Source of the DNA: Escherichia phage PSD2001
Sequence record: OK254198.1
Direction: 5' to 3' (one strand)
Length of the DNA stretch: 64,000 nucleotides
In this document: positions 7,697 through 26,300 of the stretch, in pieces
How the letters are laid out: each line of letters starts with the position of its first letter
Position numbering within the stretch: position 1 is the first letter of the stretch
The notes under the pieces: generated by a model
What the model was told of the DNA's origin: nothing
Seen by the model: only the letters and a program-made list of their open reading frames with translations
Databases searched by the model: none
Made by a program: the position numbers and the translations under genes

Positions 7697-10600
7697 ATGG
7701 CCGATATTTTAAAACCAGCATTCAGAGCAACATCCGGTCTCGATGCTGCTGGTGAGAAAGTCATTAATGTCGCAAAAGCTGATTACTCAGTTTTATCAGA
7801 CGGCGTTAACGTAGATTTCTTTATAGAAGAAAACACAGTTCAACAATATGATGCAACACGCGGATACAAAAAGAACTTTGCAGTTATTAATGATAACCGT
7901 ATTTGGGTTGCTCAACGTGATATCGCGGCTCCTGCGGGAGCATTTACCCCTCAGTATTGGTTAGCAACTCGTACTGACCCGAAATGGGAAACTGTTGCAT
8001 CTCCAACTCGTCAGCTTAACTCGGGTGAATTTATCGCCGTCGACTCGGCTGCAAGCTTTACCACATTTACATTGCCTCCAAACCCGGTTGACGGTGATAC
8101 CATCGTTATTAAAGATATCGGTGGGAACGTTGGTTACAATGAAATTAAAATCCAGTCAAGCAACGTACCAGGGGCAGGTAACCAAAAGATTGTTCGCTTT
8201 GGTAATCAGTATCCGGAAATTTTAATTACCAAACCATTCTCTTATAACATGCTTATCTTTTCAAACCGCTTATGGCAATTTTGGGAAGCTGGCAACGAAG
8301 AACGTGGCATCAGAGTAGAACCATCAACGGGTCGTTTCCATGCACAAGCTGGCGACTTTATTATGCGTCGTTATACAACTGGTGCACCGATTACTTTCAT
8401 TCTTCCTAAGTATGCAAACCAGGGTGATATTGTCAAATCTGTTGATATCGATGGCATGGGACCAACGTTCCACCTGATGGTTGAAACTTTTGACACCAGT
8501 TCCAGTCTTGGAAAAGCTGGCCAGCATCAAATGGAATTCCGTACCACAGGTGATGGTTTCTTCGTTTATAATGCTGCCGAAAAACTCTGGTATGTTTGGG
8601 ACGGTGATAATAAAACTCGTCTGCGCGTTATTCGTGACAGTGTTAAACTTTTACCAAACGAAAGCATCATTGTATTTGGCGAAGATAACTCAACTCCGGC
8701 AACGATTAATATCGATTTACCAACTAATGTTTTACAAGGTGACATTGTTAAAATTGCGCTGAACTATCTCCGCAAATCACAGACCGTTAATATAAGAGCT
8801 GCTGTTGGTGATAAGATTGCATCTGACATTAAATTGCTACAATTCCCTAAACGTTCCGAGTATCCACCGGATACAACTTGGGTGCTGGTTGATTCATTAA
8901 CCTTTAATGGCAACATCAGTTATACTCCGGTTATTGAATTGTCATATGCAGAAGATACAGTGGCTGGAACAAGTTATTGGGTTGTCGCTCAGAACGTCCC
9001 GACTGTCGAACGAGTTGACTCATTAAATGATTCCACGCGCGCACGTCTTGGTGTTATTGCTCTGGCAAACCAGACTCAGGCAAACGTTGACCATGAAAAT
9101 AATCCAGAGAAAGAACTTGCAATTACCCCTCAGACTTTAGCCAACCGTGTTGCTAAAGAGAACCAACGAGGCATTGCCAGAATCGCAACGACTGCTCAAG
9201 TAAATCAGAACAGTGATTTTGCATTTGTTGATGATGTAATTATTTCTCCGAAAAAACTCAATGAACGTACGGCAACAGAAACGAGACGTGGGCTCGCAGA
9301 ACTCGCCACACAGCAAGAAACCGATGCAGGTGTAGATGATACCACAATTATCACTCCAAAGAAACTGCAAGCGCGTCAGGGCTCAGAATCGCTATCTGGT
9401 ATTGTAACTTACGTTTCAACGACTGGTACAACTCCTGCTGCTTCACGTGAATTAAATGGTACAAACGTTTATAATAAAAATACGGTTAATCTGGTTGTTT
9501 CCCCGAAAGCTCTTGACCAGTACAAAGCTACTTACACTCAGCAAGGCGCGGTTATTCTTGCGGTTGAAAGTGAAGTAATTGCTGGTACTTCTCAATCTGG
9601 ATGGGCAAACGCAGTCGTTACTCCAGAAATGTTACATCGCAAAACTGCTCTTGATTCCCGTATCGGTTTAATCGAGATTGCTACCCAGGTTGAAACAGAT
9701 GCAGGAACCGATTATACCAGAGCTGTGACTCCCAAAACGTTAAATGACCGTAAAGCATCAGAAACGTTAACCGGCATAGCCGAGATTGCTACGCAATCAG
9801 AATTTGATACTGGAACTGATGATACTCGTATCTCAACCCCATTAAAAATTAAAAATAGATTTAATAATACTGCTCGTACTTCTGTTAATGCATTAAGTGG
9901 TTTAGTAGAAACAGGGACGCTCTGGGACCATTATAGCCTGAATATTCTTGAAGCAAATGAGACTCAGCGTGGCACAGCAAGATTAGCAACTCAGGGCGAA
10001 GTCAATACTGGCACTGACGATAAAACAATCGTTACTCCGCTTAAATTGATGTCGAAAAAAGCTACTGAAAATGCCGAAGGTATTGTTCGCATCGCGACAA
10101 ACGCAGAAGCAACAGCAGGCACATCAAAAGTCTTGGCCATTAGTCCGTCTGCGCTGAAATATATTGCACAAACGGAAACAACCTGGGAAGCATCTGAAAC
10201 ACTGCGTGGATTTGTTCGTTTATCTTCTGGTGCAGCTACTTCGGCCGCAACTACAACGACTGGTGCAGGATTTACATATGCAAATGGTGTGTATACTCCG
10301 GACCCAAGTAAACTGGTTAGCTATGCAAAATCTGGATATGCAGTTTCGCCTTACGAATTAAACCGCGTATTGCAAAACTTCTTACCGATAAATGCAATGG
10401 CTGTTAATGCCGAAAAACTGGATAACCTCGATTCGACCCAGTTTATTCGTCGTGATATTGCTCAGACTGTTGAAGGTGCGTTAACTCTTACTAAACAGAC
10501 AAATATCTCTGCTCCGGTTGTATCGACGAGCACTGCAGTGTTTACTGATGTAACGGCTGGCACTTCGACGTTCGGAACTGTGAATGTTGTTAACGGAACT

Positions 10601-11653
10601 AACAAGTGGAAAATCACTGCTCCTTCCGCCGGAACGACAATGACTATTGGCGATACGACTAACGTATTGACATTAAACACCGCCTCGGGTAATGTTGCTG
10701 TATTGAACAACCTCAGCGCCGGTAACGATGTTCAAGCCAAAAATAATTACGTTCTAAATGGTCGTACTATTGCAACCACGACGGGTGAAGCTTCTGGCGC
10801 AACTCTGGCTCTGGGTGATAACTCGCAGAATTTAGTGCTTAAAACTCTTGATGCTGGTAATATCATAGCAAACGGTGGCGGTGCATTTAAAGTCCTGACC
10901 GAGAAAAACGCTGTTGAGATTGTAGATAGAAACTTTGTTAACCAAGCCGGTGATACAATGTCTGGTGTGCTCCGTGTGAATGCTCCAGTCCGCGTATTCG
11001 GTACGAAACCAAGTCTTATCGCACAAGCCCCGACCGCAGATACTGTTGGCTTCTGGTCTGTCGATATCAATGATGAACCGACTTACAGCCAGTTCCCTGG
11101 CTACTGGACAATGAAGTTAAAACGTCAGGTAAACATTGATACAGTTCAAACTAAACCTGCTGGGGTAACTGATGAAGTTTGGAATGCTTCTGGTTGGTTA
11201 ACTGAAAACGGAACTTTCGCCTCGCCTGCTATTCGTTATCGTAATGATGACGGCTCGCTCGGTGACGAAGTATTGAGTAGTTCTGGTCAGAAACTGCGCG
11301 GAACCTGGTTTGACTATTCAGTTCGTGATAAACAAATTAAATATCCTGGTACATTGACTCAGTTCGGTAATACGCTGGATTCGTGCTATCAAGATTGGGT
11401 TTGCTATCCAACTGGATTGAACGGTGGTACTATTCGTTATACCCGTACCTGGCAGAAAAATAAATCTGCATGGACGACTTTCGCAATGGTTTACACCGCG
11501 GATAACCCTCCATCTGCAGAGGATGTTGGTGCATTACCGGCTGACAACACAACGATGGGGAACTTAACCATTCTCGATTGGTTGCGTATCGGTAACGTGC
11601 GTATCATCCCAGACCCGACCACTAAATCCGTTAAGTTTGAATGGATTGAATAA
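7697..11653 (+). CDS. 34: long tail fibre proximal subunit gp34
   Basis: 1318 aa; N- and C-terminal similarity to T4 gp34 (C-terminus ...GNVRIIPDPTTKSVKFEWIE); late promoter upstream. Confidence 0.95.
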   Translation: MADILKPAFRATSGLDAAGEKVINVAKADYSVLSDGVNVDFFIEENTVQQYDATRGYKKNFAVINDNRIWVAQRDIAAPAGAFTPQYWLATRTDPKWETVASPTRQLNSGEFIAVDSAASFTTFTLPPNPVDGDTIVIKDIGGNVGYNEIKIQSSNVPGAGNQKIVRFGNQYPEILITKPFSYNMLIFSNRLWQFWEAGNEERGIRVEPSTGRFHAQAGDFIMRRYTTGAPITFILPKYANQGDIVKSVDIDGMGPTFHLMVETFDTSSSLGKAGQHQMEFRTTGDGFFVYNAAEKLWYVWDGDNKTRLRVIRDSVKLLPNESIIVFGEDNSTPATINIDLPTNVLQGDIVKIALNYLRKSQTVNIRAAVGDKIASDIKLLQFPKRSEYPPDTTWVLVDSLTFNGNISYTPVIELSYAEDTVAGTSYWVVAQNVPTVERVDSLNDSTRARLGVIALANQTQANVDHENNPEKELAITPQTLANRVAKENQRGIARIATTAQVNQNSDFAFVDDVIISPKKLNERTATETRRGLAELATQQETDAGVDDTTIITPKKLQARQGSESLSGIVTYVSTTGTTPAASRELNGTNVYNKNTVNLVVSPKALDQYKATYTQQGAVILAVESEVIAGTSQSGWANAVVTPEMLHRKTALDSRIGLIEIATQVETDAGTDYTRAVTPKTLNDRKASETLTGIAEIATQSEFDTGTDDTRISTPLKIKNRFNNTARTSVNALSGLVETGTLWDHYSLNILEANETQRGTARLATQGEVNTGTDDKTIVTPLKLMSKKATENAEGIVRIATNAEATAGTSKVLAISPSALKYIAQTETTWEASETLRGFVRLSSGAATSAATTTTGAGFTYANGVYTPDPSKLVSYAKSGYAVSPYELNRVLQNFLPINAMAVNAEKLDNLDSTQFIRRDIAQTVEGALTLTKQTNISAPVVSTSTAVFTDVTAGTSTFGTVNVVNGTNKWKITAPSAGTTMTIGDTTNVLTLNTASGNVAVLNNLSAGNDVQAKNNYVLNGRTIATTTGEASGATLALGDNSQNLVLKTLDAGNIIANGGGAFKVLTEKNAVEIVDRNFVNQAGDTMSGVLRVNAPVRVFGTKPSLIAQAPTADTVGFWSVDINDEPTYSQFPGYWTMKLKRQVNIDTVQTKPAGVTDEVWNASGWLTENGTFASPAIRYRNDDGSLGDEVLSSSGQKLRGTWFDYSVRDKQIKYPGTLTQFGNTLDSCYQDWVCYPTGLNGGTIRYTRTWQKNKSAWTTFAMVYTADNPPSAEDVGALPADNTTMGNLTILDWLRIGNVRIIPDPTTKSVKFEWIE

Positions 11654-11661: not shown

Positions 11662-12792
11662 ATGGAAAAATTTATGGCAGAGTTTGGACAAGGATACGTC
11701 CAAACGCCAGTTATATCAGAAAATAATGCCGTTAAATTTAAAATGAGTATAGCAGGGAGCTGTACTCTTTCCACGGTGAAATCGTATATCAAATTTCAGG
11801 ATGAACGAATTGGACCAACTACTTTTGGTAATGGTCTGACTCTATTGGAAATTGATACAACTACGAATAAAATTGTTAACACGAAAAACTATTCATTAAC
11901 TAGCACACATGATGCAATCAGTCAGGCATTAATCACCTTTGTGGAATCTGTTCCAGCCGGAAGATTGATTGCTTTTATTTCTTCAGGGAAACTAAACGCA
12001 TCACAGCCATTAATTGATTGGTTCCGTAAATGCGGTTCAAGGGCATTCCCAGATAAATGGCTGATTGATAAAGTTGATACATCATACTCGGCTTTTTACA
12101 TAACCGGCCGGAACGTAATTGTTTCGGAGCATGTTAAGTATAATGACGGGAAGTTAGTTGAGGATGTTTCGACTCCGCTTGAAGTCATTTATGATACCTT
12201 TAGTGATATAGGAGCAACAGGCTATCCTGTGCGCATAACGGAAGACGAGAGCACGTATTCATCAACAGGTGATGGAACATCAACCGCAATTAGAAGGTTC
12301 CCCACAGAGGACCTGGTGACTCCTATGAGCACCTATAACCTTTTACCTTTGGATGTGCTTTACCTGAAGTTTCAGATGTCATTTGACGCCGCACTGAAAG
12401 CTGCCGGGACTGTAAGGACTTCGGTTCGATTCTTTAAAAGTCCTAGCACTTCTCCGATATCAAATACAAACATCGATATTGCGGCAAACGTTCCAGCTGG
12501 TGCATGGGCAAGTTTCGAAAGATATGTCGAGATTCCAGCGGGAGCCGATGGCTTTACAGTAGTAACATCAAGGACTGTAGCTGTGGGAACTGGGTCAATA
12601 CGTAATATTGTTATTGGCGAGATAACCAGAGGCGATTCGGCATTCAAACCAGCTGAATTTGGTGTCAACGGCATAAGGATGTCATATGCAAACGATGCAA
12701 CAAATACAGGCAATACAATTGTAACATTACCAGATGCACAAGCTCCGAGAGCCGGCAAGATATATGCAGCCGAACTACGGGAAAAACAATAG
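11662..12792 (+). CDS. 35: long tail fibre hinge protein gp35
   Basis: 376 aa; N-terminus MEKFMAEFGQGYVQTP identical in pattern to T4 gp35; terminator hairpin downstream. Confidence 0.93.
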   Translation: MEKFMAEFGQGYVQTPVISENNAVKFKMSIAGSCTLSTVKSYIKFQDERIGPTTFGNGLTLLEIDTTTNKIVNTKNYSLTSTHDAISQALITFVESVPAGRLIAFISSGKLNASQPLIDWFRKCGSRAFPDKWLIDKVDTSYSAFYITGRNVIVSEHVKYNDGKLVEDVSTPLEVIYDTFSDIGATGYPVRITEDESTYSSTGDGTSTAIRRFPTEDLVTPMSTYNLLPLDVLYLKFQMSFDAALKAAGTVRTSVRFFKSPSTSPISNTNIDIAANVPAGAWASFERYVEIPAGADGFTVVTSRTVAVGTGSIRNIVIGEITRGDSAFKPAEFGVNGIRMSYANDATNTGNTIVTLPDAQAPRAGKIYAAELREKQ

Positions 12793-12816: not shown

Positions 12817-12824
12817 TATAAATA
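12817..12824 (+). promoter_or_regulatory. late promoter (TATAAATA) for gene 36
   Basis: Exact TATAAATA right after the gp35 terminator. Confidence 0.7.
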
Positions 12825-12859: not shown

Positions 12860-13507
12860 ATGGCAGATTTAAAACTAGGCTCAACAGCCGGAGGTTCGGT
12901 CCTCTGGCACCAGGGTAATTTCCCATTAACACCAGTCAGTAATGACTTATATTTCAAAACTTATAAAATTTATTCCGAATATAACAAGCCACAAGCCGTC
13001 GATAACGATTTCGTTTCTAAAGCTCTTGGCGGTAATTATAAAGCAAATGTATATTTCGAACAAGGCCTGACATTTAACGATTCAAATGGTTACGGGATTA
13101 AGTTGGGAGCGAGAACGGGCGGTGTACCATTTACCGCATCTTTCCGTATTAAGGGGCCGTTTGGATTTGAGACTGAAACGGGAACACCATTCGTTATTTT
13201 TGACCCTGACACTACAACAAGAGCAAAACGTCTTACTGTTATGGGTGATACGTTAGCTCGACAAATTTATGATGAAACAGGTCGTGTATTTTCTCCAGGG
13301 AATACTCCGTCAAAAGCTCAAGTTGGTCTTGGTAATGTAACTAACCAGCAACAGGTGGAACTAAATAATAGTACATTGCAAACAATGACAGGTAACTTGT
13401 CAGCACCTAATTTCTTCTCTAGGAACCCTGCATCAGACCCGGCCCATGTGCCTCGTTTTGACCAAATCGTTCTTAAAGACTCCGTACAAGATTTTGGATA
13501 TTATTAA
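12860..13507 (+). CDS. 36: long tail fibre distal connector gp36
   Basis: 215 aa; position and size; TATAAATA late promoter upstream. Confidence 0.88.
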   Translation: MADLKLGSTAGGSVLWHQGNFPLTPVSNDLYFKTYKIYSEYNKPQAVDNDFVSKALGGNYKANVYFEQGLTFNDSNGYGIKLGARTGGVPFTASFRIKGPFGFETETGTPFVIFDPDTTTRAKRLTVMGDTLARQIYDETGRVFSPGNTPSKAQVGLGNVTNQQQVELNNSTLQTMTGNLSAPNFFSRNPASDPAHVPRFDQIVLKDSVQDFGYY

Positions 13508-13515: not shown

Positions 13516-16500
13516 ATGGCTACTTTAAAACAAATACAATTTAAAAGAAGTAAGGTTGCCGGCGTTCGCCCGGCGCCAACAGTTCTTGCTGAAGGTGAAC
13601 TGGCTATCAACCTGAAAGACCGCTTACTTTTTACTAAAGATGACACCGGCGCCATCATCGACCTTGGCTTTGCCAAAGGTGGTAATATCGACGGAAACGT
13701 TATTCATAACGGTAACTACAATCAAACCGGTGATTATACCCTAAATGGTACCTTTACCCAAACAGGTGATTTTAATTTAACCGGTATTGCTCGTGTAACT
13801 CGTGATATTATTGCTGCAGGTCAGATAATGACTGAAGGCGGAGAACTTATTTCTAAGAGTGCTTCAACTTCTCATTTGAGATTCTTTGATGGTGCATCAC
13901 GTGAACGTGGTATTATCTTTTCTCCTAATAATGCAGGTTTGACAACTCAGGTAGTTAATATCCGCGTTCAAGATTATGCCGCTGATAGCGAAAGCATTTA
14001 TGCGTTTTCAGGCAACGGTGTATTTTCTTCACCTGAAGTATCGGCACGGAAATCTATTTCATCCCCACAAATTCTGACCGATAAAGTTATTACAGATGGG
14101 AAGAAGACGGGCGATTATGATATATCTTCATTAGCAAATAATAATTCTGACACGGATAAAAACTATTTGCGCATTGTACGTACCGACCCAGCGTCTGCAA
14201 TACTTCATGAAATTTGCGAAAATAACGGCATAAGTTGGTATTCAGGTTCGACTCCAACTGAGTATATGTTGTCATTTTCTTATTCCGGTGGGGTGCAGGC
14301 AGGACATTCTATTGCAGTAGGTATGGAATCAGGCCCGATGGTTGGTTCTGCCTTAGGTAAAGGTTCAATTGCCCTCGGTGATAATGATACCGGATTTAAA
14401 TGGCATCAAGATGGGTATTTTTTTAGCGTTAATAACGGCACAAAAACTTTCCTTTCTGGCCCGGCGGAAACCACCAGTCTTAGAAAAATGGTTATGGGTT
14501 ATTCTGTAAACGGTACCGATTTAACCACTCCTCCGGTGGAAAATTATGCTTTGGCTACTGTTGTCACTTATCATGATAATAACGCGTTTGGAGATGGTCA
14601 GACTCTTTTGGGTTATTATCAAGGTGGTAATTATCACCACTATTTCCGCGGTAAGGGTACTACAAACGTTAACACTGCTGGCGGTTTGTTAGTTACTCCT
14701 GGCAATATTGATGTTGTTGGTGGTTCTGTTAATATTGATGGCCGAAATAACAACTCAGTTTTGCTTTTTAAAGGTTATACCACTGGTCAGAGCTCTGTTG
14801 ATAATATGTCTATTGCCGTATGGGGTAACACCTTTAATACAGTAGATGGCATCCGTAAAAACGTGATGGAAATTTCTGATGCAACTAGTTGGATGCATTA
14901 TATTCAACGAACAACTGCAGGTAAAGTCGAATCTGTTATAAATGGCACCCAGATTGTTAATGAAAACTTGACAGTAGTAAAAAATGCTACATTTGACGGT
15001 ACAATCAGCGCAGCCGGTGAAATCGCGACAAATGCTGTAAATGGTCTTCGTATTTGGAACAATGATTACGGTGCCATTTTTAGACGTTCAGAAGGAAGTC
15101 TTCATATTATTCCTACAGCATTTGGCGAAGGACAGAATGGTGATATCGGCCCACTTCGTCCATTTAGTATATCTTTAGATACAGGTAAGGTTGTTATTCC
15201 TGACTTGGATTTGAGTTATGCTTCTTTTGCAGCAAACGGCTATATTAAATTCGGTGGGCATGGCGCTGGTGCAGGCGGTTACGATATTCAATATGCACAA
15301 GCAGCTCCTGTTTTCCAAGAAATTGATGATGACGCGGTAAGTAAATATTATCCTATTGTTAAGCAGAAATTCTTACAAGGAAAAGCTGTTTGGTCTTTAG
15401 GTACTGAAATTAATTCCGGGACTTTTGTTTTGCATCATTACAAAGAAGACGGGACCCAAGGTCATACATCAAGATTTAATGCCGATGGTACAGTTAACTT
15501 CCCGGATAACGTCCAAGTTGGTGGTGGTGAAGCTACTATTGCTAAAAATGGCAATATTTTCTCTGATATTTGGAAAACATTTACTTCAGCTGGCGATGTA
15601 ACTAATATTCGAGACGCTATTGCCACCCGTGTTGCTAAAGAAGGCGATACAATGACCGGCAAATTAATCGTTAAAAGAGACTCCGACGCTATTAATATTG
15701 CTGCTGGTGATGAAACTGATTCTGGCTATTTACTTGGAACAGCAGGTGGAGTAAATTCTTGGTACGTTGGTAAAGGTGGAGCAGATGACAGTGTTTCATT
15801 TTATAATTTCAAAACTACCGCAGGAATTACTCTTAATAGTGTAGGTGATATTGATTTTAATGTTAAAAATCAAGCTACTGCAGCTTCATTAAATTTTTAT
15901 CGCTTATATTTAAATGGAAGACAGTGGGTTGCTACACAAGGTCACGGTTATGGAAACCAATGGCAAACAGAAGCTCCTTATTTCGTCGACTTCGGTGAAT
16001 CTGTTCCTAAAGATAGTTATATGCCAATTATCAAAGGAAAAAGCACTCTAATTACCGATGGATATTCTACTAAAGCAGACTTCGGTATTATTCGATTGGG
16101 TGGAGCTGCTACTTGGGGTTCTGCTGTTATTCGTGTGGGTTCTGCTGAAAGTGGCGATGCAAGTCACCCTAATGCTATATTCGTTTTTGGGGCCGACGGC
16201 ACCTTAACCGCTCCCAATGCTTTGAATGCCTCAGGTCGAATGGGCATTGGTACAGCATGTACATTACCAAATGCTTCTCTTGCCATAGGTGATAACGATA
16301 CAGGCTTTGCCACTAGAGGCGACGGAAGCCTAGGAGCCTATGCCAACGGTCAGAGTGTGTTCTTCTGGGAATTTAACGGTATTACGACCGAGCAAAATAA
16401 GTTTTTAAACGTTAATGCCGGTATGTATGTTCGTGATAATATTGACGTTAATGACGTTTATATTCGTTCTGATATCCGTTGTAAGTCAGAAATTAAGCTT

Positions 16501-16785
16501 ATTGATAACGCCCAAGAGAAATCCAAACTCTTAGGTGGTTACACTTATTTGCTTAAAAACTCCGTTACTGATGAAGTTAAACCCTCTGCTGGTTTGATTG
16601 CACAGGAAGTTCAAGAAGTATTGCCTGAACTTGTGACTGAAGATAAAGAGACTGGCTTACTTCGTTTGAATTATAACGGTATTATCGGTTTAAATACTGC
16701 TACTATCAACGAGCATACTGACGAAATCAAGGAATTGAAATCTGAAATTGCTGAATTGAAAGCATTAATTAAATCATTATTATAA
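13516..16785 (+). CDS. 37: long tail fibre distal subunit gp37, with C-terminal intramolecular-chaperone-like domain
   Basis: 1089 aa; Gly-rich repeats; C-terminal ~110 aa ([10 protein letters not shown]...[14 protein letters not shown]...[13 protein letters not shown]) resemble the autoproteolytic chaperone domains of phage fibres. Confidence 0.9.
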
Positions 16786-16789
16786 GAAA

Positions 16790-16803
16790 GGGCCTTCGGG
16801 CCC
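16790..16803 (+). terminator. stem-loop after gene 37 (no clear T-run; may be attenuating or structural)
   Basis: gggccTTCGggccc immediately before the gp38 RBS. Confidence 0.4.
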
Positions 16804-16814
16804 TGGAGGTTTTT

Positions 16815-17600
16815 ATGGCAGTAGTAGGAATACCTGGTTGGATTGGAACATCAGCAGTGGCCGAAACAGGTCAACGTTGGATGTCTGCAGCTTCTAGAGA
16901 ATTGCGTCTAGGGAACCCATCTTGGATGTCGCAATTTGCTGGTCGGTCAAGAGAAATTATTCACACAGTAAGTGAAAACCATAACTTTAACGGTCAATGG
17001 TTCCGCGACCGTTGCTTTGAAGCTGGCGCTGCCCCTATTGTGTTTAATATCGTCGGGAATATTGTATCTTATACTCGTGATGTTCCGTTGTTCTTTATGT
17101 ATGGCGATACACCTAATGAATACGTTACTTTGAATATCCACGGCGGTGTTCATATGTGGGGACGTGGTGGGAATGGCTGGGCAGCAGGGGCGATAAATGC
17201 CTCAAACGGCGGGGATGTTATACAAAATGATATTGGGGGTCGATTACGTATATGGAACTATGGTGTCATTGCTTCAGGTGGCGGCGGTGGCGGTGGATAT
17301 TCAATGGCCAACAACTGGGCTGGTAAGTATGTGGCCGGTGGTGGTGGTGGTCGTCCATATGGTTTAGGCGGTACTAATGGTGCCGCTTGGCCCGGTGGTA
17401 ATGCTTCTTATGAAAGTCCAGGAGCTGGTGGTAATACAGGGCAATATTGGGCCGGTGCAGGTGGCGATGCTGGTGCCCCTGGTCAGGCTGCAAATCCTGG
17501 TCATGGTTATTCTACCCCTCCTATGGCCGCCGGACGCGCGGTGTTCGGAAGTTCTCCTGCTTGGGGGGCAACGGGCACTATCTATGGCTCATGGTTATAG
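16815..17600 (+). CDS. 38: tail fibre adhesin gp38 (T2/T6-type, glycine-rich motifs)
   Basis: 261 aa; poly-Gly motifs ([21 protein letters not shown]) separated by variable segments; GGAGG RBS; directly after gp37. Confidence 0.88.
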
Positions 17601-17611: not shown

Positions 17612-17619
17612 TATAAATA
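17612..17619 (+). promoter_or_regulatory. late promoter (TATAAATA) for holin t
   Basis: Exact TATAAATA 18 nt upstream of the t RBS. Confidence 0.7.
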
Positions 17620-17637: not shown

Positions 17638-18291
17638 ATGGAACCAAAAGTAGGAATATCAATACCCGACCTACTTTTTGGACTTCTTGATAGAATTTTT
17701 AAAGATAATGCGACCGGGAAAGTTGTTTTTTCCAGGGTACTAGTTATTGTTCTATTATTTTTAATGGCGGTAATCTGGTATAAAGGTGATGCACTTTTAG
17801 ATGCGTACAGGGATGCTTCATATGCCTCATACACTGAAATGATAAGGCAAGACCAGGATAACAGATTTAAAATTGCAGCTATCGAGCAAATCCAGATAGT
17901 CCACTCGTCAAGTGGGGCAGACTTTACAGCAATATATTCTTTTAGACCAACTAACCTTAACTACTTTGTGGATATGGTGGGATACGAGGGGATATTGCCT
18001 GATACAGTCGACGAAAAAAATTTAGGTGGGTTTCCAATAGATAAAACTTCGGCGGAATATTTGGCGGGGGTTAATGGTAATTATTTTGAATCCAGTACGG
18101 AATCTGTATTCTTACCAACAAAGAAAAAAAGCAGCTTCACATATATGTTCAGCTGCCCATTCTTTAATTTGGAAAACGTTTATGCAGGTACAGTCTCACT
18201 GTACTGGTATAAGCAAAAACCTAACCTTGGTTTTGATAGGCTTTCTGCTATGTGTGGACAAGCAGGTCGTACGCTCGGGCGTACACGTTAG
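17638..18291 (+). CDS. t: holin T
   Basis: 217 aa; ...LLFGLLDRIFKDNATGKV...single TM...; matches T4 holin; late promoter TATAAATA upstream. Confidence 0.93.
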   Translation: MEPKVGISIPDLLFGLLDRIFKDNATGKVVFSRVLVIVLLFLMAVIWYKGDALLDAYRDASYASYTEMIRQDQDNRFKIAAIEQIQIVHSSSGADFTAIYSFRPTNLNYFVDMVGYEGILPDTVDEKNLGGFPIDKTSAEYLAGVNGNYFESSTESVFLPTKKKSSFTYMFSCPFFNLENVYAGTVSLYWYKQKPNLGFDRLSAMCGQAGRTLGRTR

Positions 18292-19907: not shown

Positions 19908-20236
19908 TTAAACCATCCTTTAACACGTTGCCACAGACTTTTCTGTTGAGCTTTATTAACACCAATTGAGCGAATAACTGGTTGTGATTCCAGGTATTCT
20001 TTATAGTCAGCTTTATAGACTTCATATGCTGCTGGAACAAAGGCACCAATCGCCGCCATGAAGTTCTTGCGAGCACCAAATGGAGCTACTGCATCATCCT
20101 GGCGATGGATAAGATACTGACCAGCTTTGACCTTGACAATAGTCCCAAGGTAAGCGCCATGATACCAAACATCCCAACCCTCTTGAGTAGGTTCTACGCA
20201 AGCACGCAATTCATTAACAATATTCAGCTTATTCAT
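19904..20236 (-). CDS. hypothetical protein (110 aa), motA.1-like position
   Basis: ORF track. Confidence 0.5.
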
Positions 20237-20243
20237 AATTTCC

Positions 20244-20852
20244 TCACTTTAAGATGTTAATAACATGTTGAATGTTTTCAGTTGACATATGATTGTCAAT
20301 GTAGGTATTCAATCCACCTACTTTAACGCTAAATCCCACGTCTGTAAACTGTTTTACTATCTTTTGTTCAGTATTATACGCATGCACGCGAATCTGACCA
20401 TCACGACGTACATCAATCTGTTTTAATGTCTTGACACGCTTGAACTTCACAATCAGATTGCTGCGGTCTTCTGAAATGCTCTTAAAGTCAATACCAATAG
20501 ACAACAATTGCTCTTTGATATATTCTGCAGTCGCTTCCATTTCATCAGTCACACCGCGTTTTGTTCTTGTCTTCTTCACTTCCAGAAGGTCAGGATTATT
20601 TTCATTCGCCCAAAGTTCAGCTGCATCCAGAATAAGGTCAACGCCTTTTTCTGTAACCATCAAACCATCACCAGAAGCTTCAACATAGTTGTTATTCAAC
20701 AATGTCTGCACACTATCAATTGATGTGTTCTGCTGGTCTAAAACAACCTCTGGACTCACGAAGTTGTTTTTGTATACAAACACCAGAGCATTGACATCAG
20801 TCTCATGCAGCGCGTTCTGGGAGCATTTAACGATATAATTTAACTTGTTCAC
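20244..20852 (-). CDS. motA: middle-transcription activator MotA
   Basis: 202 aa; SGDGL motif and overall resemblance to T4 MotA. Confidence 0.85.
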   Translation of the reverse strand: MNKLNYIVKCSQNALHETDVNALVFVYKNNFVSPEVVLDQQNTSIDSVQTLLNNNYVEASGDGLMVTEKGVDLILDAAELWANENNPDLLEVKKTRTKRGVTDEMEATAEYIKEQLLSIGIDFKSISEDRSNLIVKFKRVKTLKQIDVRRDGQIRVHAYNTEQKIVKQFTDVGFSVKVGGLNTYIDNHMSTENIQHVINILK

Positions 20853-20854
20853 AA

Positions 20855-21082
20855 TTATCCCTTAATAGATTTCATGTAATTTGATGCATATGATTGTACC
20901 ACAGTACGTTTCATATGGGAAGTAGAAACAATCACATCAATTGCTTGTTTACGTTCTTCTTTAGAGTTTGCCAGTTTGAACATGTCAAAGTAGTAGTAGC
21001 AAGCTTCTTTGTTAGATTTGAATTTGATGTTGATGTATTCTTGACCTTCATTCTGTTGTGCAGTAAACATTTTATTCTCCAA
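20855..21082 (-). CDS. hypothetical protein (75 aa)
   Basis: ORF track; early promoter cassette immediately upstream. Confidence 0.5.
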   Translation of the reverse strand: MENKMFTAQQNEGQEYINIKFKSNKEACYYYFDMFKLANSKEERKQAIDVIVSTSHMKRTVVQSYASNYMKSIKG

Positions 21083-21098
21083 AGTTTTTGTGATTCAG

Positions 21099-21151
21099 TG
21101 TGTAACTCAGTATGGAATCATTATGTCCTAAGACAAGGGGGTTGTACACTA
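21099..21151. repeat. 53-bp exact direct repeat, copy 1 (partner at ~47422-47474)
   Basis: tgtgtaactcagtatggaatcattatgtcctaagacaagggggttgtacacta read identically at both places. Confidence 0.85.
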
Positions 21152-21160
21152 CTTTTTTTA
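21119..21160 (-). promoter_or_regulatory. early promoter cassette (copy inside the 53-bp exact repeat)
   Basis: cattat...gttgtacactactttttttaaaa; upstream of 20855..21082. Confidence 0.65.
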
Positions 21161-21170
21161 AAATAAAAAA

Positions 21171-21186
21171 GGACCCCGAAGGGTCC
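21171..21186 (-). terminator. rho-independent terminator after the gene 52 unit
   Basis: ggaccccGAAgggtcc with a T-run on the minus strand. Confidence 0.7.
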
Positions 21187-21284
21187 TAGTCTTTATCTAT
21201 CTTATTACCAATAAACATACCAACAATCACACCTGCGATTGCCGCAAAAATACAAAGCAATGCAAACTCAACTCCAAAACTCAT
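21186..21284 (-). CDS. small hydrophobic peptide (32 aa), translationally coupled to the gene 52 stop; not in ORF track
   Basis: ATGA overlap with gene 52 stop; MSFGVEFALLCIFAAIAGVIVGMFIGNKIDKD; ends inside the terminator hairpin. Confidence 0.4.
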   Translation of the reverse strand: MSFGVEFALLCIFAAIAGVIVGMFIGNKIDKD

Positions 21285-22660
21285 AGAGCCTCCAAGTCAT
21301 TAAGGTATTCAGTTTTAACATCAGTTGTCTTCCAGTATTCATGCTCAGCTTTCTTAGCCTTTGCTTCGTCTGCAAGCTTCTTGGCTTCATCAGAGGTCAT
21401 ATGGTAGATGTTCATCGCCACTAACTTCTCTGCATAATCGCCATATATTTCACTTGCCTGGAGTTCCTCAATCAACTTCTTACGAGGTTTCCCCTGGATA
21501 ACAACCTTACCGTCAATCACTTCTTTAATAAAGAAGACTTTTGCCCGGGCCAGTTTAAATGCTGCTTCAGTTTCTTTAATCTTACTGTCAATTCGCACTT
21601 GAACATAAGTCTTACGGACATCAACGAAATCGCGAATCAGGTCAAGCGTGTTGGTGTATTCGGCCAGCTTACCTTTGTGATTAAGCACCGTTAAGTTCTG
21701 GGAGAGCTTCTCAATCAGACCGAAGTCTTTCATGATTTTCTCATGATTCTCTTCTTCAGTACCATCCAACTTGTATTCTTTGCGGAATTTAATCTTAAAC
21801 CCAAAACCATGCTCGCCGCAGTTATCTTTCCAGGTGATAAAACCTTTCTCTTCCAGCGGGTCCAGGATTTTACTTGTATACTTTTCCAGGTTCCATTGGA
21901 CCGGGATTTCAGTAATTTCCATTTGGGTCCTGGAGGTCATTTTGTATGTGCCATGAAGTTCATACTTACCAGGCTCTTCCAGCTCAACAACTTCACCGCG
22001 GAATTCTGGATATTTTACTTTCGGAGCAACCGGCTCACGACCTTCCACGATAGCTTTAACAGCTTCCTTGACGTCCTGGAACGAATGAGGAAGTATATCA
22101 GTAGCGAAGCCAACAGCAATCCCAGAAGTGGCGTTAAGTAATACAGTAGGAATAACAGGAAGATAAAAAGCAGGAGGCTTATGTTCTTCATCAGGATGGA
22201 CCGGAGCATATTCTGTATCCTTAAACAAGTTATAAAAGTTCTTTGAAACCCTTGCGAATACATAACGAGCTGATGATGCTTCTGGCACCATTCTGGAACC
22301 AAAGTTGCCTTGCCCATCAAACATGGGGTATTCATTTTTATATGTTGCGACCAGACCAGAAGTTGCTTCTTCCGCCGATGCTTCGCCATGGTGATAACCA
22401 TAATCAGCTACGCCGCCGGCGATAGATGCAACTTTATGGAATTTATTCTTATCACCACGAGCCAGGTCTAATGCTCTCGCCATAACAAATCTGTGAACTG
22501 GTTTAAAACCATCAATCATGTTTGGGATGGCACGACCTTCCACAGTGTAGATAGCATATGATAATGCTTCCACATCAATAATGTCTTTTAGACTGCGTGG
22601 GTTAAGGGTCCCCATGGAATCACTGAACTGTTTGGACATCATACTTAAAACGTCAGACAT
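21281..22660 (-). CDS. 52: DNA topoisomerase II medium subunit gp52
   Basis: 459 aa; GyrA/ParC-like N-terminus (...AIPNMIDGFKPVHRFV...) as in T4 gp52. Confidence 0.93.
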   Translation of the reverse strand: MSDVLSMMSKQFSDSMGTLNPRSLKDIIDVEALSYAIYTVEGRAIPNMIDGFKPVHRFVMARALDLARGDKNKFHKVASIAGGVADYGYHHGEASAEEATSGLVATYKNEYPMFDGQGNFGSRMVPEASSARYVFARVSKNFYNLFKDTEYAPVHPDEEHKPPAFYLPVIPTVLLNATSGIAVGFATDILPHSFQDVKEAVKAIVEGREPVAPKVKYPEFRGEVVELEEPGKYELHGTYKMTSRTQMEITEIPVQWNLEKYTSKILDPLEEKGFITWKDNCGEHGFGFKIKFRKEYKLDGTEEENHEKIMKDFGLIEKLSQNLTVLNHKGKLAEYTNTLDLIRDFVDVRKTYVQVRIDSKIKETEAAFKLARAKVFFIKEVIDGKVVIQGKPRKKLIEELQASEIYGDYAEKLVAMNIYHMTSDEAKKLADEAKAKKAEHEYWKTTDVKTEYLNDLEAL

Positions 22661-22668
22661 ATATCACC

Positions 22669-22809
22669 TTACCAGATTAACGAATGTACTGCCATTATAG
22701 CATCAGAAATAAAAAGCACAACCTGCACTAATGCAAACATAACTCCATAATACAACGCCACCAATAAGGTAGCAAGGGCTAACGAGTAGCCCAGGATTTT
22801 CTTAATCAT
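22669..22809 (-). CDS. small membrane protein (46 aa); not in ORF track
   Basis: ATGA overlap with the upstream gene stop; hydrophobic; ends 8 nt before the gene 52 ATG. Confidence 0.4.
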   Translation of the reverse strand: MIKKILGYSLALATLLVALYYGVMFALVQVVLFISDAIMAVHSLIW

Positions 22810-22991
22810 TTGTTAACCGCTGATTCCAGAAATTTGACTAAGGCATCCAGTACAAACCATGTGCAAATAAATCCTGCAAAAAGAGTACTTGGGACCCATA
22901 CACCTGTAGCAAAAAGAGTCACAGCAACGATAACAGCTACGAGCCAGATAAAAGTAAAAACTGTTTGCATATTTTCCTCAAGGGCGTCCAA
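22806..22991 (-). CDS. small membrane protein (61 aa), in the T4 ac/stp region
   Basis: ORF track; two predicted hydrophobic helices. Confidence 0.5.
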
Positions 22992-23059
22992 AGACGCCAG
23001 TTAATTTCAGATTATGACGATGCCATTGCATCACGTGCTCATTATGGAAATTACTCATA

Positions 23060-23509
23060 TTAATAGCTCTGCAGAATGAATTTAAAGTTATCAGCAAGCA
23101 TGCGATTCATTTCTGAAAGGGTCTGACAATCAGAACTATGTGAGCGTGTGAACGCCATCGCAATTTGACCTTTACCATAACCAGTTGTCAAAGGTTTCAT
23201 TTTAGAAACTGGAACAAACAGGACTTCATAGATAACACCATTGTTCGCCATTGTGCGCGACAGTTGTGAACGCTGTTTGCGGATGTGACTTAATACAGTG
23301 TCAAACCCTTGTTGTGAACGTTGGTTACCAACGTAAAAACGTGCAGCAACAATACGTGATTCGCCTTCACCTTTAACCACGAAATAAAAACCTGGTTGGG
23401 TGATAGCTTCTTTAGTTGGACGCCCTACAACATAATTGCCATTATGGATGTGAGCAACAGTGGTAGCGCCAGCATTCAGTACGTCACGACGGGTCATGTA
23501 AGTAGTCAT
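23060..23509 (-). CDS. ndd: nucleoid disruption protein Ndd
   Basis: 149 aa; ...PGFYF...[29 protein letters not shown]...[12 protein letters not shown]...AFTR...[15 protein letters not shown] matches T4 Ndd. Confidence 0.9.
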
Positions 23510-23552
23510 ATTAATTTCCTCAGTAAGTTAAAGTTTTGTGCTCCAGTGGGGT

Positions 23553-23592
23553 CATTATACTCTGACCCCAAGAGTTTGTACACTATTTTTGA
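23553..23592 (-). promoter_or_regulatory. early promoter cassette with stem-loop spanning the -10 region
   Basis: ggggtcattatactctgacccc ... tttgtacactattttt. Confidence 0.55.
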
Positions 23593-23927
23593 AGTTGTTC
23601 TAAAATAAATCCGCTGGTGTAAAAGGGAGCATTATAAACCTTGTTCAGTGGGTTCAAAGCCTGTCCGTAAGTATCACATAGTTCTTTGATAACATTTTCA
23701 TAGCTTACATAATAACCACTATGATAATACGGGTCCATACTCATACGAAATTTAATGAACCGATAAAAGCCTGTTTCTGGGTCTTGAACGAAAACGAAAT
23801 CAGCACTCGTCATAATTTTTGAATCTACGCCGGGAATCATACTTTGATTGAATGCCGCCGATGCATCCTGAAGGCTGAGTTGTTTAAAGAACATCACCTT
23901 AGCATTACCAAAAAAGATTTTAGACAT
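23583..23927 (-). CDS. hypothetical protein (114 aa)
   Basis: Start set at internal Met with AAGGA RBS. Confidence 0.5.
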   Translation of the reverse strand: MSKIFFGNAKVMFFKQLSLQDASAAFNQSMIPGVDSKIMTSADFVFVQDPETGFYRFIKFRMSMDPYYHSGYYVSYENVIKELCDTYGQALNPLNKVYNAPFYTSGFILEQLQK

Positions 23928-23937
23928 GATAATTTCC

Positions 23938-24150
23938 TTATTCAGCGTCAACAGAAATAGCCATCAGTTCATCAACAGTAAGACACTGTACACTAGGACC
24001 TACGCAAAAACGCTTAGTTGAATCATTGAGGTCTGTAGCATTAACAGGTTGTAATTCGGTCCCAACTTGCAAAGGAGAAATACGAATAAGTTGTTGGCCA
24101 TTATGCAATACAAAGCTCTCACCGACTACCACATCTTTAAAAAGTTTCAT
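23938..24150 (-). CDS. hypothetical protein (70 aa)
   Basis: ORF track; GAGG RBS. Confidence 0.5.
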   Translation of the reverse strand: MKLFKDVVVGESFVLHNGQQLIRISPLQVGTELQPVNATDLNDSTKRFCVGPSVQCLTVDELMAISVDAE

Positions 24151-24167
24151 AATATTTTCCTCAGTAA

Positions 24168-24314
24168 TTAAAGAATTTCTTCAATTTGAATGTATTTGCT
24201 ATAACCTTCCTCAATGAGGATATCACGAGCACAATCAGCACTGATATAAGCATTAAAGCTAAGGGTTTTAATCACTTTACCATGCAGCTTTACTTTATAA
24301 ATTCGATTACCCAT
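24168..24314 (-). CDS. hypothetical protein (48 aa)
   Basis: Internal Met with GAGG RBS; intergenic cassette near-identical to that of 23938..24150. Confidence 0.45.
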   Translation of the reverse strand: MGNRIYKVKLHGKVIKTLSFNAYISADCARDILIEEGYSKYIQIEEIL

Positions 24315-24324
24315 AATATTTTCC

Positions 24325-24435
24325 TCAGAAGTTAAAGAATACGCGTACATGGTCAATCATAAAAACAATTGGGAAAATGCTCAGGACAACAAACAGTACA
24401 AACATGTTCCAAATGGCTTTAAGTAACTTTTTCAT
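24325..24435 (-). CDS. small hydrophobic peptide (36 aa); not in ORF track
   Basis: GGAG RBS and early promoter cassette upstream; coordinates approximate. Confidence 0.35.
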   Translation of the reverse strand: MKKLLKAIWNMFVLFVVLSIFPIVFMIDHVRVFFNF

Positions 24436-24460
24436 AATCATCTCCAGTAGTTGATAGGTT

Positions 24461-24498
24461 CATTATACTACAACCACTGGAGATGTACACTCTTTTAT
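24461..24498 (-). promoter_or_regulatory. early promoter cassette
   Basis: cattatacta...gatgtacactctttt. Confidence 0.55.
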
Positions 24499-24580
24499 GC
24501 AAGTTTCAATAATAATAAACTAAAACAAACGCAAATTACTGGGATGCACAACATCCAGATAAAACACCAGGTTCTGCTGC

Positions 24581-24844
24581 TCACAATTCCACCTCAATGA
24601 TTTCAAGTTGATTTTCAACAATTGCATGCTGAATACATTTATACACATCAATGGACCAGGAATTATTATATTGCCCATCAATCAAACGTTGAAGGTCTTC
24701 GCGAGTTGACAGATATGGTTGGTCTGATTCCCATTTTGATAAAAACATTGTGGTGTATGTATCGCCTTCGCCGGTGACAAAGGTCGCGGATGCAACAAAT
24801 TCCCCAGTAACTTTATGCTTGACATAGTAAAATTTAAATTTCAT
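24581..24844 (-). CDS. hypothetical protein (87 aa)
   Basis: Internal Met with GGAG RBS; early promoter cassette upstream. Confidence 0.5.
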   Translation of the reverse strand: MKFKFYYVKHKVTGEFVASATFVTGEGDTYTTMFLSKWESDQPYLSTREDLQRLIDGQYNNSWSIDVYKCIQHAIVENQLEIIEVEL

Positions 24845-24872
24845 TTTGTTTCTCCAGTCTGTTTGGTAACTC

Positions 24873-24912
24873 AGTATGAAGCCATTATGCACTGACTCCA
24901 TACTGATGTACA
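24873..24912 (-). promoter_or_regulatory. early promoter cassette
   Basis: aactcagtatgaagccattat...gatgtacactatttt. Confidence 0.55.
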
Positions 24913-24917
24913 CTATT

Positions 24918-25193
24918 TTAATTGTGCATTTGTTCTTTAACTTCTTTATATGCGCCAACTGCATTCACGACCCCAGTAAAATCTGCAGTACCGCGATAGA
25001 GATATAAAGCAATTTCAGTCAGGTGGTAGACTTCAAATTCTGAAAGATAAACGATAACGTCATAATATGCAACTTGACCCTGGACTTCGTTGAATACCAC
25101 ATCAAAAATTTCATGAGTTGGAAAATTGATGTTGTTGTTTTTGAGTGCTTGGATAAGAATTTGTTTGATGTTGTGAGTAGTAACGTGTTCCAT
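24918..25193 (-). CDS. hypothetical protein (91 aa)
   Basis: Internal Met with GAGGA RBS; the track ORF's 5' extension overlaps the next gene. Confidence 0.5.
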   Translation of the reverse strand: MEHVTTHNIKQILIQALKNNNINFPTHEIFDVVFNEVQGQVAYYDVIVYLSEFEVYHLTEIALYLYRGTADFTGVVNAVGAYKEVKEQMHN

Positions 25194-25222
25194 GATAATG
25201 TCCTCATTTGTTGGTATGAGGA

Positions 25223-25256
25223 CATTATTACACAGTTGGTTCAGCTTGTAAACCGG
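25223..25256 (-). promoter_or_regulatory. early promoter (-35 GTTTACA)
   Basis: cattattacacag...cttgtaaacc; hairpin cctcat...atgagg adjacent. Confidence 0.5.
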
Positions 25257-25834: not shown

Positions 25835-26087
25835 CTTTTACCTCATCGATACCGACGATTCCCCGGATATGAAGCTCGCCATAGTACAAACGGTCATTAG
25901 CATCAAATGTATCAGAATCCGGGTCAGGAAATTCCCCAACAACTACTTCATCACATTCCAACCAGCCATAGTGAACATCACCTTCATGCTTGATAAGCTT
26001 ACCACAGTAAACTATTCCTGCATAATGATGACCCCGGAGATTTGAAACTTTGATGTCACGGTCTGACACATTGAAATGCTTAATCAT
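25818..26087 (-). CDS. hypothetical protein (89 aa)
   Basis: ORF track. Confidence 0.5.
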   Translation of the reverse strand: MIKHFNVSDRDIKVSNLRGHHYAGIVYCGKLIKHEGDVHYGWLECDEVVVGEFPDPDSDTFDANDRLYYGELHIRGIVGIDEVKDDSEE

Positions 26088-26090
26088 AAT

Positions 26091-26288
26091 TTATTCACCA
26101 AAATAAGAGATACGAGTTGCCAGTACATGAGCATATGCGCCCATCGCATCTAACTGGGCAATCAAAAGACCTTGTTGACGAGCATCGAGAGTTTCAAAAA
26201 CTCCACCCTTAATAAACTCTTCAAGAGCATTAATTTTCAAAACCAGCTGGTCATATTCTTCAACTACACGTGCTTGGAAACCTAACAT
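26091..26288 (-). CDS. hypothetical protein (65 aa)
   Basis: ORF track; directly downstream of rIIB. Confidence 0.5.
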   Translation of the reverse strand: MLGFQARVVEEYDQLVLKINALEEFIKGGVFETLDARQQGLLIAQLDAMGAYAHVLATRISYFGE

Positions 26289-26300
26289 AAAGCCTCATTA

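Follow-up and report, generated by a model that had tools for sequence, protein, structure and literature searches.

The stretch examined here is a window of 64,000 nucleotides from Escherichia phage PSD2001 (sequence record OK254198.1), and its subject is the pair of adjacent genes at positions 13516 to 17600, g37 and g38. Together these genes very probably encode a long tail fibre tip of the T2/T6/S16 type, in which a self-cleaving gp37 is combined with a gp38 adhesin whose loops set the host range. A preliminary description of this DNA had proposed a T2/T6-type module with a chaperone-ended gp37 and a glycine-rich gp38, and this proposal is borne out by a profile match to the Peptidase_S74 family, by matches of gp38 to PF05268 and PF21721, and by fold matches. 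Its further claim, that host range resides in the gp38 loops rather than in the gp37 tip, is supported but unproven: the variable loops correspond to loops A-E of phage PP01, and no T4-type tip is present. The features of g37 are as follows.

13516-16785, plus strand: g37, long tail fibre distal subunit precursor (1089 residues, 116.3 kDa; PHROG 1699, E=0, full length)
13516-16467, plus strand: predicted mature gp37 (residues 1-984, 104.7 kDa; end placed by homology)
16264-16467, plus strand: distal beta-helical tip of mature gp37 (residues 917-984; aligns to residues 23-95 of the S16 gp37 tip, 6f45_A)
16405-16782, plus strand: block of gp37 with 100% protein identity to Bp7 gp37 (residues 964-1089; from alignment)
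16465-16470, plus strand: predicted autocleavage site Arg984/Ser985 (motif DVYIR^SDIRCK)
16468-16782, plus strand: intramolecular chaperone (IMC), or Peptidase_S74, domain (residues 985-1089, 105 residues, 11.6 kDa)
16468-16470, plus strand: predicted nucleophile Ser985
16483-16485, plus strand: predicted general base Lys990
Residues 1056-1089 of gp37: C-terminal heptad coiled coil of the chaperone, from the heptad pattern

The Peptidase_S74 domain (PF13884, 'chaperone of endosialidase') was found at residues 985-1041 of gp37, covering profile positions 1-58 of 58 with E=4.6e-12 and 46.5 bits against a curated cut-off of 22; the lack of a chaperone-domain profile match, which the preliminary description had named as the result that would speak against it, did not occur. 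The segment of about 110 residues singled out there corresponds to this domain, its quoted part starting at residue 983 and comprising 107 residues, of which 105 form the chaperone proper. The domain occupies the extreme C-terminus of the protein, right after the S16-like beta-helical tip segment (residues 917-984), and S16 gp37 (6f45_A), of which only 69 residues are ordered in the crystal, was matched by gp37 in phmmer with E=2.7e-32. When 65 diverse S74-domain proteins retrieved with the C-terminal 189 residues of gp37 are aligned, Ser985, Asp986 and Lys990 are invariant, as are G1008, G1026, I1028-A-Q1030 and P1037. The Ser-Lys dyad S985-D-I-R-C-K990 fits the pattern S-D-x-R-x-K and aligns with the corresponding motif of S16, T2, T6 and MyRF, while the longer string VYIRSDxRxK is invariant in the gp37 proteins of T2, T6 and Bp7. 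Compared with solved structures, the profile of the 65-sequence alignment matched S16 gp37 (4.5e-41), MyRF ICA 7dc3 (1e-11) and another phage fibre (2e-11).

The AlphaFold2 model of residues 901-1089 has a predicted local distance difference test score (pLDDT) above 90 across the chaperone part, which is preceded by beta strands and followed to its end by a 36-residue terminal helix (residues 1053-1088, fragment positions 153-188), likewise above 90. The best Foldseek matches of this model were MyRF ICA 7dc3 and the endosialidase 'Intramolecular Chaperone' 3gw6, both with probability 1.00. Clean heptads are present in the last 34 residues of gp37 (a=IIIII, d=NHLLL). Cleavage sites of this kind have been reported previously: the S16 site DLNVS^SDRRIKK, where S16 gp37 sheds its last 113 residues by autocleavage, is homologous to the PSD2001 site, and the site of the fPS phages, DVYIR^SDGRLKI, has the same DVYIR as PSD2001, a strand for which a role in gp38 docking was described in the same study (PMC7917993). 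By analogy, gp37 would be cleaved at the Arg984-Ser985 bond to give a mature gp37 of 104.7 kDa and a chaperone of 11.6 kDa.

At the DNA level, residues 1-891 of gp37 (13516-16200) resemble the O157 phages wV7, AR1-type and EAWsc9, with 82-86% identity. As judged from sequence comparison gp37 is itself a mosaic, since its proximal part of about 890 residues is like that of O157 phages and its last 126 residues or so are identical to those of Bp7. Residues 446-552 also match the gp34 C-terminal trimerisation domain PF21446.

The partner of gp37 in this module, gp38, consists of two domains.

16815-17600, plus strand: g38, predicted tail-fibre tip adhesin (261 residues, 26.8 kDa)
16815-16940, plus strand: N-terminal attachment domain of gp38 (residues 1-42; PF21721; Trp9, Trp22 and Trp37 'prongs')
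16953-17597, plus strand: receptor-binding domain of gp38, a beta-helix plus polyglycine-II (PGII) sandwich (residues 47-261; PF05268)

Both Pfam profiles were matched over their entire lengths, PF05268 (GP38) with 252 bits and E=7.3e-75 (positions 1-218 of 218) and PF21721 (Gp38_N) with 73 bits and E=1.6e-20 (positions 1-40 of 40), and PHROG 2056 was matched with E=2e-107. Glycine makes up 22% of the protein and 30% of residues 111-261, where alignments show invariant Gly columns; the ten G-runs of gp38 include G7 (155-161) and G5 (175-179). The earlier picture of a 261-residue protein with poly-glycine motifs between variable segments is therefore accurate, given these ten runs, five high-entropy segments and the two Pfam families. 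The tryptophans W9, W22 and W37 all align with Trp residues of S16 gp38, the corresponding three of which insert into the gp37 tip, and the conservation of W9 and W22 is 90% or more in an alignment of 86 gp38 sequences. The receptor-binding domain of PP01 gp38 (PDB 9V85) is 77% identical over residues 40-259 (E=8e-102), and identities elsewhere are 46% with T2, 64% with T6 and 47-57% with S16-type adhesins; an alignment with T2, T6 and S16-like (57%) adhesins, which had been proposed as a check, delimited the variable segments. In total, 776 phage records match PSD2001 gp38.

Structure prediction, also proposed as a check, placed gp38 on PP01 gp38 and the gp37 domain on the chaperone folds of MyRF ICA and 3gw6. 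The AlphaFold2 model of gp38 (mean pLDDT 88) superposes on 9v85_C at 0.7 Å root-mean-square deviation and a template modelling (TM) score of 0.95, and matches S16 gp38 (6f45_D) with E=2.8e-21; no PDB fold beyond 9v85 and S16 gp38 was matched by this model, as expected for the rare polyglycine-II sandwich. Location at the virion tip and direct receptor binding of gp38 have been shown for S16, PP01, T2, Bp7 and LHE83. On sequence and modelled structure PSD2001 gp38 appears to be a bona fide T2/S16-type tail-fibre adhesin, for which tip location and receptor binding are predicted.

The contrast with T4 drawn in the preliminary description also holds. T4 gp38 is unrelated to PSD2001 gp38 (BLASTP E=11), and the homology between the two gp37 proteins, with 35% identity over PSD2001 residues 1-657, ends near residue 657. 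Pfam detected neither Collar nor Phage_fiber domains in PSD2001 gp37, whereas T4 gp37 has both, and detected no S74 domain in T4 gp37; His-x-His motifs number 0 in PSD2001 gp37 versus 8 in that of T4. A T4-type tip, made up of a needle/head gp37 and a 183-residue chaperone gp38, was thus considered for this locus and rejected (no Collar, no His-x-His, gp38 E=11). A natural control is provided by phage PNJ212 ('212', PQ765507), which has a backbone about 96% identical to that of PSD2001 and the same host strain, and which carries a gp37 with T4 needle repeats and a 180-residue gp38 with 93% identity to the T4 chaperone. At the nucleotide level the two phages cease to be similar from about position 13553, and similarity is back at 96% exactly at 17612, which is the late promoter of gene t, twelve bases past the g38 stop codon. 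Because similarity vanishes and resumes at these points, the unit of distal g37 and g38 behaves, as far as sequence comparison can tell, as an exchangeable cassette. In the GenBank annotation of PNJ212 the names are off by one gene, gp37 being labelled 'tail fiber assembly protein' and gp38 'holin'.

The receptor loops of gp38 were delimited by column entropy in the 86-sequence alignment, which yielded five variable segments (residues 123-129, 163-173, 187-194, 206-212 and 226-235). These coincide with receptor loops A-E of PP01, which were defined crystallographically and genetically (PMC12892980), and the corresponding loops of PSD2001 are listed below with the number of positions equal to PP01.

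17178-17195, plus strand: receptor loop A, WAAGAI (residues 122-127; 6/6)
17304-17333, plus strand: receptor loop B (residues 164-173; 9/10; Gln to Met, Q161->Met164)
17373-17390, plus strand: receptor loop C, TNGAAW (residues 187-192; 4/6; N184T, R188A)
17433-17447, plus strand: receptor loop D, NTGQY (residues 207-211; 4/6; T207Q and G208 deleted, essential Tyr kept)
17493-17513, plus strand: receptor loop E, NPGHGYS (residues 227-233; 6/7; PP01 Ala228 -> His230)
17502-17504, plus strand: His230 codon, replacing PP01 Ala228 at the loop tip that enters the OmpC loop-5/loop-7 cleft

The Tyr residues essential in PP01 (PP01 Y159, Y209 and Y230) are kept in PSD2001 gp38, as is the Lys-Tyr pair of loop B (PP01 K168/Y169). 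The residue at the tip of loop E varies naturally within this loop family: PP01 has Ala at this position and HY01 has Ser, Asn is present in bov9_1 as well as in a metagenomic variant, and PSD2001 carries His.

The 163 informative nucleotide sites of g38 switch back and forth between two ancestries. Blocks of PP01 type lie over the five loops (residues 119-130, 161-173, 180-190, 204-215 and 226-237) and blocks of Bp7 type over the scaffold (residues 96-116, 131-154, 191-200 and 237-260), so that residues 96-260 form a fine mosaic of PP01/HY01/bov9_1 loops with a scaffold and C-terminus of Bp7/fPS-90 type (78 against 60 informative nucleotide sites). Since the block identities are only 70-90%, these exchanges appear to be old, or else the true donors are unsampled. 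Such an alternation would be expected if, as Trojet et al. proposed, segments are shuffled by way of the glycine motifs. Residues 1-39 of gp38 are 97-100% identical to those of Bp7 and UGJNEcP4, and the Bp7-type gp37 tip and chaperone thus seem to be co-inherited with a Bp7-type gp38 attachment domain. This combination fits the finding that, in a T2-type module in which gene 38 is essential, the N-terminal part of gp38 must match its gp37 partner (PMC12892980).

By analogy with the characterized systems, the tip is probably assembled in the following way. The gp37 protein would be made as a 116-kDa precursor, whose C-terminal 105-residue S74 domain would trimerise via the terminal coiled coil and template the folding of the trimeric beta-helix that lies before it. 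With Lys990 as its activator, Ser985 would then cut the Arg984-Ser985 bond, and departure of the 11.6-kDa chaperone would bare a flat hydrophobic tip built of three DVYIR strands. One gp38 monomer is expected to dock on this tip through its N-terminal domain, using Trp9, Trp22 and Trp37, and its polyglycine-II sandwich would hold the five hypervariable loops at the distal end, where reversible receptor contact would set the host range.

Several observations weigh against this interpretation. The structure models are of monomers, while the proteins are expected to act in a trimer-monomer complex. Wang et al. 2025, who found that PSD2001 depends on group 4 capsule (etp) and on outer-core sugars of the lipopolysaccharide (LPS), concluded from proteinase K and periodate adsorption data that polysaccharides are the sole receptors, and reported that a recombinant gp37 fragment, 'ORF165C', relieves the inhibition of the phage by LPS (PMC12323348). 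Receptor binding by gp37 itself was moreover the outcome that the preliminary description had named as contradicting its reading, and LPS binding by the gp37 C-terminus is what has been published, on evidence judged weak here. The T2-type assignment is regarded as supported rather than proven because this report stands against it. According to the published alternative, the C-terminus of gp37 binds the R3 LPS outer core in a T4-like manner and gp38 is only an assembly factor. In its favour, pre-incubation of LPS with ORF165C at 100 nM or above restored the titre, which a Hoc control did not, and adsorption is LPS- and capsule-dependent (PMC12323348); many database records also still label this type of gp38 an 'assembly catalyst/chaperone'. 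However, gp37 ends in an S74 chaperone whose catalytic residues are intact, a kind of domain that is removed in S16 and T2, no T4-like tip was found on gp37 (no Collar domain, no fibre repeats, 0 His-x-His), and gp38 is unrelated to the T4 chaperone. The ORF165C primers, as printed in the supplement of PMC12323348, match the window exactly at 16612-16632 and 16780-16800 and bracket only nucleotides 16612-16800, corresponding to residues 1033-1089 plus the stop codon, wholly inside the chaperone. Both are minus strand as printed, the forward one being antisense, and cannot amplify as a pair, and the forward and reverse primers of ORF108C are printed as identical sequences (PMC12323348 supplement). 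The primer table is hence unreliable, and the real ORF165C construct cannot be reconstructed because its forward primer is given in the wrong orientation. In addition, the premise that Bp7 gp37 binds LPS clashes with the naming of GP38 as the receptor-binding protein (RBP) by the Bp7 group (PMC10987938), gp38 is mentioned 0 times in PMC12323348, and the case for gp37 is based on one competition assay, which is indirect and used a fragment whose trimeric state is unverified. Receptor binding by the gp37 C-terminus is for these reasons considered very improbable. An uncleaved or still attached S74 domain, with a fibre that ends in the chaperone and gp38 located elsewhere or unbound, is considered highly improbable, as none of the invariant family positions, the catalytic Ser and Lys included, has been lost, Bp7 has a 100% identical domain together with a gp38 that is its functional RBP, and the docking domain of PSD2001 gp38 with its Trp prongs is conserved.

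The identity of the receptor is predicted with less confidence than the architecture. In PP01, loop E inserts into the loop-5/loop-7 cleft of O157 OmpC, loop B Lys168/Tyr169 lie near LPS sugars, outer-core mutants are impaired, and at position 228 the substitutions A228V and A228L are tolerated while A228D is lethal (PMC12892980). Because the PSD2001 loops are of PP01/HY01 type, its terminal receptor is tentatively predicted, at somewhat less than even confidence, to be O157-type OmpC, recognised jointly with LPS outer-core sugars via the loop B Lys-Tyr pair, with His230 modulating or weakening the protein contact. Two points speak against the OmpC part of this prediction: His230 may be incompatible with OmpC binding, since A228D abolishes infection by PP01, and in the resistant mutants of Wang et al. 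2025 the mutations lay in waaF and etp and not in ompC (PMC12323348). The same architecture could alternatively serve a gp38 that binds carbohydrate only, without any outer-membrane protein, its target being Gal I/Glc II/Glc III of the R3 LPS outer core and possibly the group 4 capsule, in which case a protein-to-glycan switch would have taken place on PP01-type loops. This alternative, which is judged unlikely but deserves serious attention, would account for adsorption that is proteinase K-resistant and periodate-sensitive, for inhibition by free LPS, and for the complete resistance of waaG and waaO deletions together with the failure to recover ompC mutants (PMC12323348). It would also be in line with His230 at the PP01 Ala228 site, where the polar A228D kills OmpC-dependent infection, and with the retention of the LPS-linked loop B Lys-Tyr pair. 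Precedents include fPS-65, which uses inner-core heptose (PMC7917993). RB32-type adhesins, for their part, use OmpA and LPS. Host-range mutants of Ox2 gp38 reportedly moved from OmpA to LPS, which is likewise counted in favour of a glycan receptor. On the other side, 28 of the 34 aligned loop positions equal those of the OmpC-binding PP01, and the 35th PP01 position is missing from loop D owing to the deletion there. Protease resistance is common among porins in intact cells, which also counts against a purely glycan receptor. Deep-rough and outer-core mutants lower porin levels as well, and in the PP01 study the LPS mutants contained less OmpC (PMC12892980). Just two stable resistant mutants were analysed by Wang et al., and the result for PSD2001 on the authors' own delta-ompC strain is absent from the text and supplements (PMC12323348). 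That the loop changes of PSD2001 gp38 (His230, two substitutions in loop C, and a deletion plus a substitution in loop D) turned it into a pure adhesin for the R3 LPS outer core, perhaps for group 4 capsule, seems rather doubtful. If this were the case, the published 'polysaccharide-only' phenotype would be real but mediated by gp38 and not by gp37, and the phage would present a natural, structurally interpretable protein-to-carbohydrate receptor switch on a polyglycine-II scaffold.

The T2-type module is embedded in a complete T-even long-tail-fibre operon on the plus strand of the window, in the canonical order g34-g35-g36-g37-g38-t, with the following neighbouring genes and elements.

7697-11653, plus strand: g34 (1318 residues; PHROGs and Pfam names agree)
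11662-12792, plus strand: g35 (376 residues; PHROGs and Pfam names agree)
12817-12824, plus strand: T4-type late promoter motif TATAAATA upstream of g36 (exact motif; likely start of the g36-g37-g38 late unit)
12860-13507, plus strand: g36 (215 residues; PHROGs and Pfam names agree)
16789-16804, plus strand: perfect intercistronic hairpin AGGGCC-TTCG-GGCCCT with a UUCG tetraloop, between the g37 stop codon and the g38 Shine-Dalgarno sequence
16805-16809, plus strand: g38 Shine-Dalgarno sequence GGAGG
17612-17619, plus strand: late promoter motif TATAAATA for holin t, at the right-hand boundary of the exchangeable g37-g38 module
17638-18291, plus strand: holin t (217 residues; PF11031, E=2.4e-66)

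The position of g38, between the chaperone-bearing g37 (29-nucleotide spacer) and holin t, is that expected for a T2/S16-type adhesin. The motif TATAAATA also occurs upstream of g34, at 7658. As T4-type late motifs precede g34, g36 and t, g36-g37-g38 probably form one late transcription unit, as in T4; the assignment of these promoters relies on position and on known T4 late-promoter biology, because the count of TATAAATA in the whole window (7 observed versus 4.8 expected) is not above chance. A scan of the window for sigma-70 promoters gave hits at chance level, T4 late promoters being the relevant type. A G+C-rich hairpin is found at the same position between genes 37 and 38 in T2, T6, T4 and Bp7, with compensatory changes in the stem, and on this account it is a conserved intercistronic element, whichever type of gp38 follows, perhaps with a role in mRNA stability or translational coupling. 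Its function as an intrinsic terminator was considered and rejected, the folding energy in context being unexceptional (z=-1.06) and terminator-like sites in the window being at chance level. Scans of the whole window for tRNA genes and Rfam families found nothing, and NCBIfam gave zero matches for gp37 or gp38. In the hinge connector gp35 (11662-12792), residues 57-128 match PF15711, the Pfam domain ILEI / interleukin-like EMT inducer, weakly but at a level that passes the threshold (E=1.1e-6, 29.5 bits, cut-off 27).

The gp37 and gp38 proteins are exact matches to UIS66074.1 and UIS66075.1 of PSD2001, labelled 'hypothetical protein' and 'tail fibers protein', respectively, in GenBank. In nucleotide comparisons the backbone is about 95-96% identical to P479, CJ20, MN01 and phage '212', while the g37-g38 region is far more diverged, with a best nucleotide identity of 81-86%. 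The backbone appears to be Gaprivervirus-like because the nearest relative, P479 (MW269952; window 20000-40000 compared), is classified as Gaprivervirus; a Dhakavirus-like backbone, suggested by matches to JS98 and Bp7, was dropped for the same reason. PSD2001 is called a 'T6-like Tequatrovirus' in a 2026 preprint, a label that misfits this relative, and simply 'T4-like' by Wang et al. 2025 (PMC12323348).

With regard to its significance, the module is already known, being a textbook arrangement in a phage that is already deposited and whose adhesin has been noted in the literature, as the 2026 preprint already records a Gp38 adhesin in PSD2001. The T2-type tip has been known since the 1980s, with structures from 2018 and 2026, and predominates among T-even phages, so it has no import for basic biology. 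What is added here are an exact predicted cleavage site with its products, a map of PP01-type loops on a Bp7-type scaffold, a testable receptor prediction and a reason to doubt the published RBP. PSD2001 is under development against E. coli O157:H7. Its RBP has been treated in just one paper, which picks the gp37 C-terminus and overlooks gp38. If the T2-type assignment is true, then engineering of this phage's host range, the design of cocktails and forecasts of resistance should be directed at the five gp38 loops, with OmpC as the candidate terminal receptor. The pair PSD2001 and PNJ212, with backbones about 96% identical, the same host, and T2-type versus T4-type tips, is a handy natural system in which to compare adhesion strategies.

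Among known systems, T4 shares with PSD2001 the gene positions, the proximal two-thirds of gp37, the late-operon layout and the 37-38 hairpin, but differs in that its Collar, His-x-His iron needle and head domain bind the receptor directly and in that its gp38 is a non-structural chaperone of 183 residues. Endosialidase endoNF (3GW6) and MyRF ICA (7DC3) share PF13884, the S-x4-K spacing and a fold with a long C-terminal helix; their identity to PSD2001 is only 11-24%, and they are borne on a sialidase tailspike or a eukaryotic transcription factor, not on a T-even fibre. CkP1 was rejected as a precedent for an LPS-binding gp38-type fibre since its gp37 has a T4-like His-x-His needle, and the 'gp38' of SD286 (PMC12946066) is an unrelated DUF7173 protein outside this adhesin family. 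T2 and T6 resemble PSD2001 in the VYIRSDxRLK motif, the S74 domain and a gp38 of 261-262 residues with the same glycine motifs, and differ in their gp38 loops, which are unrelated to those of PSD2001. Their receptors are FadL/OmpF and Tsx. Processing of gp37 and capping by gp38 are established for T2/T6, release of the S74 domain only for S16 and T2.

The S16 gp37-gp38 pair (PDB 6F45; Dunne et al. 2018) has the same two-gene layout, with an S74 chaperone cleaved before SDxRxK, and its gp38 likewise has N-terminal Trp prongs, a PGII sandwich and distal hypervariable loops. Identities with PSD2001 are 47-57% for gp38 and about 40% for the gp37 tip/IMC. Just before the scissile bond PSD2001 has Arg (DVYIR^S) and S16 has Ser (DLNVS^S), the chaperone has 105 residues versus 113, and the loops of S16, which read Salmonella OmpC, are unrelated in sequence. 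Bp7, a Dhakavirus, is closer: the last 126 residues of its gp37, comprising the tip strand and the whole IMC, are 100% identical to those of PSD2001, residues 1-121 of its gp38 are 90-97% identical, and the 37-38 intergenic hairpin is the same, whereas all five gp38 loops differ (TVNGN / LQNSWAPNAT / GGVNW / YTSQF / ...). The reported receptors of Bp7 are LamB and OmpC of K-12 (PMC10987938). The deposited Bp7 g38 (NC_019500, 4950-5240) seems to contain two frameshifts close to the 3' end, and its annotated C-terminal 45 residues or so are probably artefactual, as the conserved GNHLSRSGGGAPGRAVFGS and SPTWGATGAIYGSWL stretches fall in the other two frames. PP01 (PDB 9V85; PMC12892980) is like PSD2001 in having been isolated on O157:H7 and in its dependence on the LPS outer core. 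In PSD2001, however, the inter-loop scaffold, the N-terminal attachment domain and the C-terminus of gp38 are of Bp7 type and not of PP01 type, and PP01 strictly needs OmpC, while PSD2001 has been reported as polysaccharide-only.

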